Shown in pieces: positions 2,578 to 2,693 of a DNA stretch of 10,107 bases. The stretch is from a virus (Duplodnaviria; Heunggongvirae; Uroviricota; Caudoviricetes). The stretch lies in the IMG/VR virus record IMGVR_UViG_2675903595_000003, one strand, 5' to 3'. The position numbers were made by a program, and so were the translations under genes. The stretch's first letter is position 1, and the number at the start of each line of letters is the position of its first letter. The notes under the pieces are model-generated. The model had not been told where the DNA came from and ran no database searches. It worked only from the letters and a program-made list of their open reading frames with translations.

Positions 2578-2607
2578 TTGACCAGACACATTGTCCGGGG
2601 CTATATT
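2578..2607 (+). promoter_or_regulatory. candidate late promoter pR' (with probable Q-utilisation region)
   Basis: TTGACC (2578-2583), 17-nt spacer, CTATAT (2601-2606), or TATATT with an 18-nt spacer. The position immediately after Q is canonical for pR'. Confidence 0.5.
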
Positions 2608-2668
2608 CCTCACGCGCCAGCAAAATCTGGCGTCGGGATTGGAACCCCGGATAGAGACCGCGACAGAC

Positions 2669-2693
2669 ACACGCCGCGAGCGTGTTTTTTATT
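2669..2693 (+). terminator. candidate tR' intrinsic terminator
   Basis: Stem ACACGC (2669-2674) / GCGTGT (2680-2685), 5-nt loop, then TTTTTTATT. Lies about 80 nt downstream of the pR' candidate. Confidence 0.55.

Follow-up and report, generated by a model that had tools for sequence, protein, structure and literature searches.

An IsrK / c4-a1b1-type leader with a C4 antisense RNA and an antirepressor gene downstream of a Q-family antiterminator in a tailed phage genome

The stretch of DNA analysed here (the window; 10,107 nt of a Caudoviricetes virus, record IMGVR_UViG_2675903595_000003) carries a Q-family antiterminator gene (2166–2573; 135 aa; PF06530, E 2.7e-52), which forms the context of the RNA unit that is the subject of this study, and lies outside it. 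The Q product matches the Q21 structures 6P18/6JNX distantly (E 3e-7), and the gene shares ~75% nucleotide identity with 933W Q, up to position 2548. Between Q and the late genes, in the position that pR′–tR′ holds in lambdoid phages, there is a terminator-ended unit at 2578–2693. It is followed by a C4-type antisense RNA, a second regulatory module, an antirepressor-like gene, a homologue of the 933W late promoter and a tRNA block; further downstream come an Rz1-containing frame (PF06085; 5229–5861, the ORF being partly masked by Ns) and other large ORFs. The features described below from Q to the late-promoter homologue lie on the plus strand.

An earlier note on this DNA had described a near-consensus promoter just past the Q stop codon, a perfect internal hairpin and an intrinsic terminator, and each of them is present where that note had placed it. 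The promoter (2578–2607) consists of the −35 element TTGACC (2578–2583), which begins 5 nt downstream of the Q stop, an 18-nt spacer and the −10 element TATATT (2602–2607). It is the top promoter-like site of the window (10/12 in the promoter scan), with a predicted transcription start at G2614. The perfect hairpin reads CGCCAG/caaaat/CTGGCG at 2615–2632 and comprises 7 pairs when extended to 2614–2633 (hairpin 1). Its loop, GCAAAAUC, is invariant, and has no part in the mechanism proposed below. A second hairpin, CGGG-AUUGGAAC-CCCG at 2634–2649, absent from the earlier note, comes next, and is followed by a linker and the terminator identified by the terminator scan (2669–2693), made of the stem-loop ACACGC-CGCGA-GCGTGT (2669–2685) and the tail TTTTTATT (2686–2693; U5-A-UU). 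By simple statistics alone, these features are not above chance: the window holds 8 promoter-like sites, with 8.1 expected and hence no excess, and 17 terminator-like sites, with 8.7 expected, while the fold energy of the single sequence is uninformative (z = −1.17). The observation is significant because of homology, namely the isrK score, the covariation and the fixed −10 element, and not because of such counts.

The unit is a member of the IsrK sRNA family, an element that P1-type immI operons have as their a1/b1 leader. The Rfam isrK model (RF01394) matches 2614–2690 with 77.5 bits (cut-off 50; E 1.1e-15) over positions 1–77 of its 77, the founder copy from Gifsy-1 reaching 79.3 bits with the same model, and our own covariance model of the IsrK family gives 79.7 bits on the unit. 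Overlapping this match, the c4-a1b1 model (RF03163) scores 50.1 bits (cut-off 46.7) at 2601–2653. In the whole window, Rfam returned six families at or above their curated cut-offs, namely isrK, c4-a1b1, C4, sRNA-Xcc1 and two tRNAs, the latter being Met and Arg according to ARAGORN. As expected of an IsrK RNA, the ~77-nt sequence has its own predicted promoter and a 3′ intrinsic terminator (2669–2690), with a complementary read-through target and then an antirepressor gene downstream; the coupling of an overlapping ORF to the antirepressor start, which is also part of the IsrK arrangement, is not kept. The proposal of the earlier note that a short terminated prophage regulatory-RNA unit lies directly after Q is thus borne out by the isrK family match and by the Gifsy-1 homologue. 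The note named the right kind of element for its sRNA candidate but erred on family and partner RNA and, most probably, in taking the promoter for pR′; it also overlooked the neighbours that decide the function of the unit, namely a C4 antisense RNA and an antirepressor gene. As a member of a curated and experimentally studied RNA family, the unit is of an already known kind, and an ordinary one. The term c4-a1b1 was not found in the literature searched, and the NCBI pipeline annotation of a close E. coli relative is without these RNAs.

The C4-type antisense RNA, equivalent to STnc1160/orf45, occupies 2716–2799 (RF01695, 71.0 bits; cut-off 45), and its fold of an outer stem plus two hairpins is reproduced. 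Leader and C4, both above their gathering scores, stand in the order of P1-type operons. In the nomenclature of P1, the a1 site, GAUUGGAAC, lies in the loop of hairpin 2 (2637–2645) and is complementary to a′, GUUCCAAC, in C4 (2771–2778), the a1/a′ duplex having a predicted energy of −15.1 kcal/mol; it is the equivalent of the mutationally proven G28/G31–C162/C159 pairing of Gifsy-1. The b1 site, GAGACCG in the linker (2654–2660), pairs, including one G-U, with CGGUUUC of the C4 hairpin-2 loop (b′, UCGGUUUC, 2757–2764), and its position matches that of b1 in P1. Directly after C4, a second copy of GAUUGGAAC (2801–2809), recognized as a sequence repeat of a1, constitutes the a2 site. The b2 site, which in P1-type operons joins a2 in front of the regulated gene by lying on its ribosome-binding site, was not found at 2810–3100, where the best match is 4 nt long; in L099 and L102, two loci with an identical IsrK–C4 region, it is present as GAAACC 16 nt before the ant ATG. 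The antirepressor-like gene itself (3048–3617; ORF6N, PF10543, E 9e-21; AnrP/Ant equivalent) shares 87% nucleotide identity with part of Gifsy-1 anrP.

Conservation across related loci points to the same elements. A degenerate pattern of the IsrK 5′ half retrieved at least 120 viral contigs, and a second scan retrieved at least 120 genome contigs, mostly from Enterobacterales, with other Gammaproteobacteria and a few more distant taxa; the viral comparison set consisted of 90 distinct homologous loci among the matches listed. The variable triplets of a1 and a′ complement each other in 86 of these 90 listed loci and form four specificity classes (CGU/ACG, UCU/AGA, AAC/GUU and CAU/AUG); among the matches listed, 75 distinct loci have a parsable a2, which is identical to a1 in 72. 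The b′ loop of C4 is hypervariable (39 distinct variants in the 90 listed loci); for these 39 loops, the longest Watson–Crick run between linker and b′ loop has a median of 7 in cognate and 3 in non-cognate combinations. In nearly all loci among the matches listed, b2 lies ~20 nt after a2 and 6–16 nt before the ant start codon. The three hairpins are kept in the 70 distinct IsrK sequences among the matches listed, with 99.5% of the pair cells paired (32–42% in slid controls) and compensatory changes at 7 pairs, values reached by 0 of 500 shuffles; in the terminator stem of these homologues, CG/GC/AU exchanges occur at two outer pairs, with pairing kept. A −10 element (A2, T6) stands at a fixed distance from hairpin 1 in all 82 distinct upstream segments among the matches listed, compared to 0–6 of 82 at shifted positions, and a −35 element is present in 75 of the 82. 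Covariation and promoter conservation together mark the unit as a putative primary transcript that is conserved along with its terminator and its two pairing sites; family membership, architecture and the covarying sites are shown by the present comparison. Of 5426 complete E. coli genomes, 1995 have matches to the region, with a median of 2 places per genome.

The experimentally studied relative is that of Gifsy-1 (Hershko-Shalev et al. 2016, PMC4825925), where the isrK promoter was demonstrated to yield a terminated RNA of ~77 nt, with partial read-through into an mRNA of ~910 nt and a processed ~80-nt species over the C4 segment (STnc1160). There, G28/G31 of IsrK pair with C162/C159, and IsrK supplied in trans raises AnrP translation >100-fold, an effect that is lost with G28A/G31A in the sRNA. 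The full-length transcript is almost entirely a1–a′ paired and translationally silent (‘structure A’), G28A/G31A in cis raise expression, and the authors describe activation by IsrK as a structural switch at the orf45 ribosome-binding site and not as titration of a processed C4 (PMC4825925), an account that speaks against the decoy role proposed below. The activity of the promoter, the terminated and read-through RNAs, their pairing, the trans-activation and the association with Hfq are known from Gifsy-1 experiments only. Gifsy-1 resembles the window in the order Q (AntQ), isrK, C4, AnrP, IsrJ and tRNA, with the layout antQ–isrK–orf45/STnc1160–anrP, and the two are 83% identical from 2591 (−10 region) to 2806 (a2 site); position 1 of Gifsy-1 IsrK, in the numbering of the mutants (C18, G28, G31), aligns with G2614, and the two AUGs of orf45 (+107 and +119) have conserved counterparts at 2720 and 2732. 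The upstream Q gene differs (PF06323 in Gifsy-1, PF06530 in the window), as do the a specificity (GGAAC/GUUCC in the window, GGCGU/ACGCC in Gifsy-1) and the b specificity (GAGACCG and UCACCG, respectively). Moreover, the overlapping ORF has 76 codons in the window versus 45 in Gifsy-1 and is uncoupled from the antirepressor start, and ~230 extra nt with a promoter, a terminator and an Xcc1-type RNA separate C4 from the antirepressor gene, b2 being missing.

More distantly than Gifsy-1, the immI operons (c4–icd–ant) of P1 and P7 share the layout of leader and C4 (RF03163 and RF01695). In P1, the promoter is followed by a hairpin with a CAAAUU loop, a hairpin with a1 in its loop, a linker with b1, a terminator-like hairpin and c4 with a′ and b′; a2 directly adjoins c4, b2 lies on the icd ribosome-binding site, and ant follows. 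The P1 leader matches the isrK model with 35 bits, which is below the cut-off (E 8.5e-6). On the basis of the shared site order and of this match, IsrK is therefore the terminated form of a P1-type a1/b1 leader. C4 specificity varies between relatives, as in the cassette family. P1 differs from the window in having two promoters and a C1 operator, and in being a plasmid prophage without Q; in addition, P1 has a b2, placed over the icd ribosome-binding site, and a translationally coupled ant, whereas b2 is missing from the window. The authors of the Gifsy-1 study also named the seqA/CI RNA of P4 as a structural homologue of IsrK (PMC4825925). In P4, as with IsrK, a processed sRNA pairs with complementary sequences up- and downstream in its own transcript, but by its description that system causes premature transcription termination of replication genes and does not control antirepressor translation.

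Compared to L099 and L102, the window diverges 8 nt after a2, at the junction of CTGACGGTG and TTGACAG, and it is there that a second tandem module starts (2819–3046), delimited by the promoter scan, Rfam and complementary words. This module comprises a promoter TTGACA-17-TACATT (2819–2847), a leader hairpin GGUG-CUCAAAA-CACC (2855–2869), the word CUCGAAAGC (2869–2877), a terminator-like hairpin with U7 found by the scan (2883–2910), and an sRNA-Xcc1-type RNA (2933–3016; RF02221, 77.4 bits, cut-off 53). The loop of the Xcc1-type hairpin, ACUUUCGA (2982–2989), is complementary to UCGAAAG, which occurs in leader 2 and again at the ant ribosome-binding site, in UUCGAAAGGA (3037–3046). Single-stranded UUUGAG of the same RNA is complementary to CUCAAA, found in the loop of leader 2 and once more in CUCUCAAAAG (3012–3021), just after the Xcc1-type RNA. 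In other loci, such words covary (GCAAGUAG with CUACUUGC; CUAAAG with CUUUAG and CUAAAGGAGG), with several further cases among 107 distinct loci; the automatic parser of the Xcc1 loop is crude and the difference between cognate (means 5.1–5.7) and non-cognate (4.2–4.4) combinations modest, so that the comparison rests mainly on clear single cases. The same Xcc1 module precedes antB in phage Nil2, whose order is ninE, IsrK/C4, antA, promoter, Xcc1, antB and roi, each module having its own ant. In the literature searched, sRNA-Xcc1 is a trans-acting, virulence-linked sRNA. As read from the sequence, b2 and the ribosome-binding site of module 1 are replaced in the window by a second module of the same logic and, given the lack of b2, it is most likely the Xcc1-type RNA that represses the antirepressor.

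Taken as a whole, the unit is best explained as an attenuated IsrK leader that mimics the target sites of C4, a reading to which we assign a probability of about 0.8. The sigma-70 promoter of the cassette would start transcription at ~2614, and most transcripts would end at the intrinsic terminator at ~2690 as an RNA of ~77 nt, while a fraction would read through to give the C4-type antisense RNA. Because the short RNA carries the C4 recognition words, a1 in the hairpin 2 loop and b1 in the linker, it could bind C4 itself or the C4 portion of read-through transcripts, and would thereby keep C4 away from its mRNA sites. In a standard cassette, these are a2, just past C4, and b2, at the antirepressor ribosome-binding site. 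The ratio of terminated leader to read-through would then set the amount of free C4 and, in consequence, whether the antirepressor is made and the prophage induced. For this copy, expression and action as a decoy are inferred. Its canonical cis circuit lacks the b2 target and is thus incomplete, and module 1 may be a decaying remnant. With the Xcc1-type RNA replacing the b2 control, IsrK and C4 would act only via read-through into module 2 and in trans, the trans route leading to other prophages. Tentatively, and as a possibility that we hold to be somewhat less than even, the IsrK/C4 pair, having lost its own mRNA site and being stacked before the Xcc1 module, may be the first tier of a two-tier switch or a trans emitter of IsrK/C4 to co-resident prophages of the same a/b specificity, with sRNA-Xcc1 RNAs being C4-type repressors with leader decoys.

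The position of the late promoter bears on how the unit is to be read. Downstream of the antirepressor gene, 3635–3718 shows 84% identity to 933W 20666–20753, annotated as pR′, qut and terminator, with the alignment spanning 3635–3723. It contains a −35 element TTTACG (3635–3640), a 16-nt spacer, a −10 element TATCCT (3657–3662) and, according to the terminator scan, a first terminator at 3693–3714 plus a U run. In 933W, pR′, qut and the first terminator overlap the end of Q, and a tRNA promoter and tRNAs come next, as in the window. Among the matches listed, this promoter and terminator are kept 733–1015 nt past IsrK in 9 of the 11 viral loci with a PF06530-type Q. Because the pR′ homologue maps after the antirepressor gene, the cassette (~2568–3634) lies between Q and its cognate late promoter; the promoter at 3635 is the more likely target of Q, and its transcript the more likely true ‘6S-position’ short RNA. 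The same arrangement is seen in Gifsy-1, where IsrJ is driven by a promoter located after anrP, TTGCAA-17-TATATT; in a Klebsiella phage that is without the cassette, this promoter stands immediately behind the Q82-like gene. IsrJ thus appears to take the place of 6S in Gifsy-1.

Against this background, the earlier suggestion that the promoter at 2578 is a Q-dependent pR′ and Q loading site, and its RNA a by-product of antitermination of the 6S or StxS type, seems to us quite improbable. The immediate vicinity of the Q stop and the terminator downstream do speak for it, as do the report by Sy et al. (PMC7547250) that IsrK comes from an antitermination-regulated promoter, the transcribed CAAAAT at +8 to +13, which has the A2/T6 of a −10-like pause element, and the upstream half of the promoter spacer, which varies between classes of upstream genes. 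However, the same promoter and RNA stand, among the matches listed, behind PF06530 genes (Q21/933W-like, as in the window; 11 loci), PF06323 genes (Q82-like, as in Gifsy-1; 13 loci), DUF1133 genes with a weak PF06530 match (15 loci), NinE (14 loci), a small protein without assignment (7 loci) or no ORF of at least 60 codons (47 records). Behind lambdoid upstream genes, the promoter is identical from ATCCGGGGCTATATT on, with ~9 nt after the −35 element varying, and CAAAAU is conserved in P1 as well, which is without Q. Because the same promoter follows three Q families, NinE or no gene, it is probably neither pR′ nor a Q loading site. The association of spacer sequence with Q family is not decisive as evidence of a Q site, the two being 40 nt apart and co-inherited, and is further weakened by the same promoter behind NinE or no gene. 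The resemblance of the spacer word ACATTGTCC to the annotated 933W ‘qut’ ACATTGCC was rejected as such evidence, since TT(A/G)TCC is common to cassette promoters behind all upstream genes, which leaves ~3 specific bases. Nor does the unit share sequence or structure with the proposed relatives: the lambda Q–pR′–6S region gave no match to the IsrK-family covariance model, and the comparison with 933W pR′–tR′ that the earlier note had suggested returned noise (7.9 bits, E 1.6). An Rfam scan of the 933W locus for kinship of StxS or 6S with the unit found nothing, and blastn of the window against 933W aligned Q, the tRNA block, and pR′ together with its first terminator, with nothing in the window aligning to positions 3009–3329 of that locus (StxS, tR′). 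StxS (EcOnc15; Sp5, Sp15, 933W) and lambda 6S do resemble IsrK as short terminated transcripts between Q and the late genes, and both StxS and IsrK were first recovered as Hfq-associated RNAs. Nevertheless, StxS arises by processing from the 3′ 74 nt of a pR′–tR′ RNA of 258 nt, a segment that is missing from the window, and IsrK, unlike StxS and 6S, has a dedicated partner RNA, C4, and a promoter that is not tied to one Q family. The 6S/StxS likeness is therefore not upheld, and the unit probably does not mark the Q antitermination site either, as its promoter travels with the cassette.

A reading closer to the one preferred here holds the leader to be purely a cis attenuator or folding device, in which a1 and b1 hold a′ and b′ until C4 is processed, and the 77-nt RNA is a by-product without function in trans. 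The silent, largely a1–a′ paired full-length transcript of Gifsy-1 and the effect of G28A/G31A in cis would fit such a role, and the annotation of P1 calls the a1/b1 sites only ‘putative’. The loss of trans-activation with G28A/G31A in the sRNA of Gifsy-1 argues against it, and so does the terminator, kept by compensatory changes in the 70 homologues among the matches listed, with a weaker hairpin in P1, which suggests that the short form itself is under selection; we therefore regard a purely cis role as rather unlikely. That the region encodes a small protein can practically be dismissed. Two TTG-initiated ORFs, of 74 codons (2578–2802) and 41 codons (2591–2716), do overlap the unit, but they begin inside the promoter itself, and the variation among homologues is RNA-like, with paired compensatory changes and a hypervariable linker whose gap runs of 4–9 columns would shift the frame. 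The absence of Pfam hits led us to reject coding for these two ORFs and for a third at 2720–2950.

The unit itself is of less interest than the side observations, which are the placement of the cassette ahead of pR′ and behind Q, IsrJ as the apparent 6S-position RNA of Gifsy-1, and Xcc1-type RNAs as possible analogues of C4. As to annotation, the unit should be labelled as an IsrK / c4-a1b1 leader and not as pR′/6S. The cassette is a portable module, found at the same place in two unrelated Q lineages, namely between the Q gene and its cognate late promoter; because it is portable and inserted before the late promoter, the description of IsrK as the product of an antitermination-regulated late promoter needs care. 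The many a/b classes (four for a and 39 loop variants for b across the 90 loci among the matches listed) fit an immunity-specificity code, comparable to the difference between P1 and P7, and with several copies per genome this specificity could govern cross-talk among them. If the tentative reading of the second module is true, sRNA-Xcc1 RNAs would repress translation of the antirepressor in the manner of C4 and have leader decoys of their own.

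The loop of the first IsrK hairpin (window 2614-2633) is GCAAAAUC, and its counterpart in P1 (L123 3231-3250) is GCAAAUUC. This loop lies outside the a/b pairing and is conserved in the Rfam consensus; its invariance within our own set of homologues holds by construction, since the search pattern demanded the sequence. When read as DNA, the loop supplies a -10-like CAAAAT at +8 to +13.

Immediately 3′ of the a2 site, a second, tandem immI-like module occupies window 2819-3046, its core being an RNA of the sRNA-Xcc1 type (RF02221), and within these limits the module has a promoter, a leader hairpin and a terminator-like hairpin of its own. 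Two sets of complementary words were recognized: UCGAAAG, which is present both in the module's leader and at the ribosome-binding site of the antirepressor gene, has its complement in the Xcc1 hairpin loop ACUUUCGA, and the unpaired UUUGAG of Xcc1 is complementary to CUCAAA, which is found in the leader loop and directly 3′ of the Xcc1 RNA. These complementary words covary in other loci. In the literature that we found, sRNA-Xcc1 is a virulence-linked trans-acting small RNA and is not presented as a C4 analogue. In the RefSeq annotation of a prophage in E. coli EC12 (L246, NZ_CP070229, 1974-2457; 89% identity), the interval from Q to the ORF6N gene carries no RNA gene, which leaves the IsrK, C4 and Xcc1-type RNAs there unannotated.

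The module was inserted at this same point, immediately 3′ of a2, in the IMG/VR loci L004 and L111, both of which are natural recombinants; L111 is of mixed specificity, with class AAC/GUU at a1/a′ and class CGU at a2. In another locus, L063 (1324-1414), unrelated sequence breaks the IsrK copy past the start of the linker, possibly through insertion of a mobile element.

The cassette junction falls inside the 3′ end of the Q gene, and Q is therefore shortened: the window protein (2166-2573) has 135 aa, ends in ...RYVERIM and, compared with the 157-aa Q of 933W (L122 2460-2933), is without the final ~19 residues. Eleven viral loci share such a short form (131-135 aa). Window 3635-3718 is homologous (84% identity) to the 933W segment comprising pR′, qut and the first terminator. 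Where the transcribed region of 933W has the -10-like TACATT, the window and all nine related loci have TACTAC. Since the window lacks the 933W segment with StxS and tR′, the short transcript of the 3635 promoter would be only ~50 nt. Farther along, runs of N mask part of the region 3′ of the tRNA genes (3991-4453, 463 bases) and part of the lysis region (5389-5741, 353 bases), and ORFs called across them carry no meaning.

In Gifsy-1, the promoter of the Salmonella small RNA IsrJ (L001 3342-3447) reads TTGCAA-17-TATATT. This promoter directly follows the Q82-like gene of a Klebsiella phage without the IsrK cassette (L124 1200-1290), and IsrJ therefore looks like the pR′-tR′ transcript of Gifsy-1, in the position of 6S RNA.
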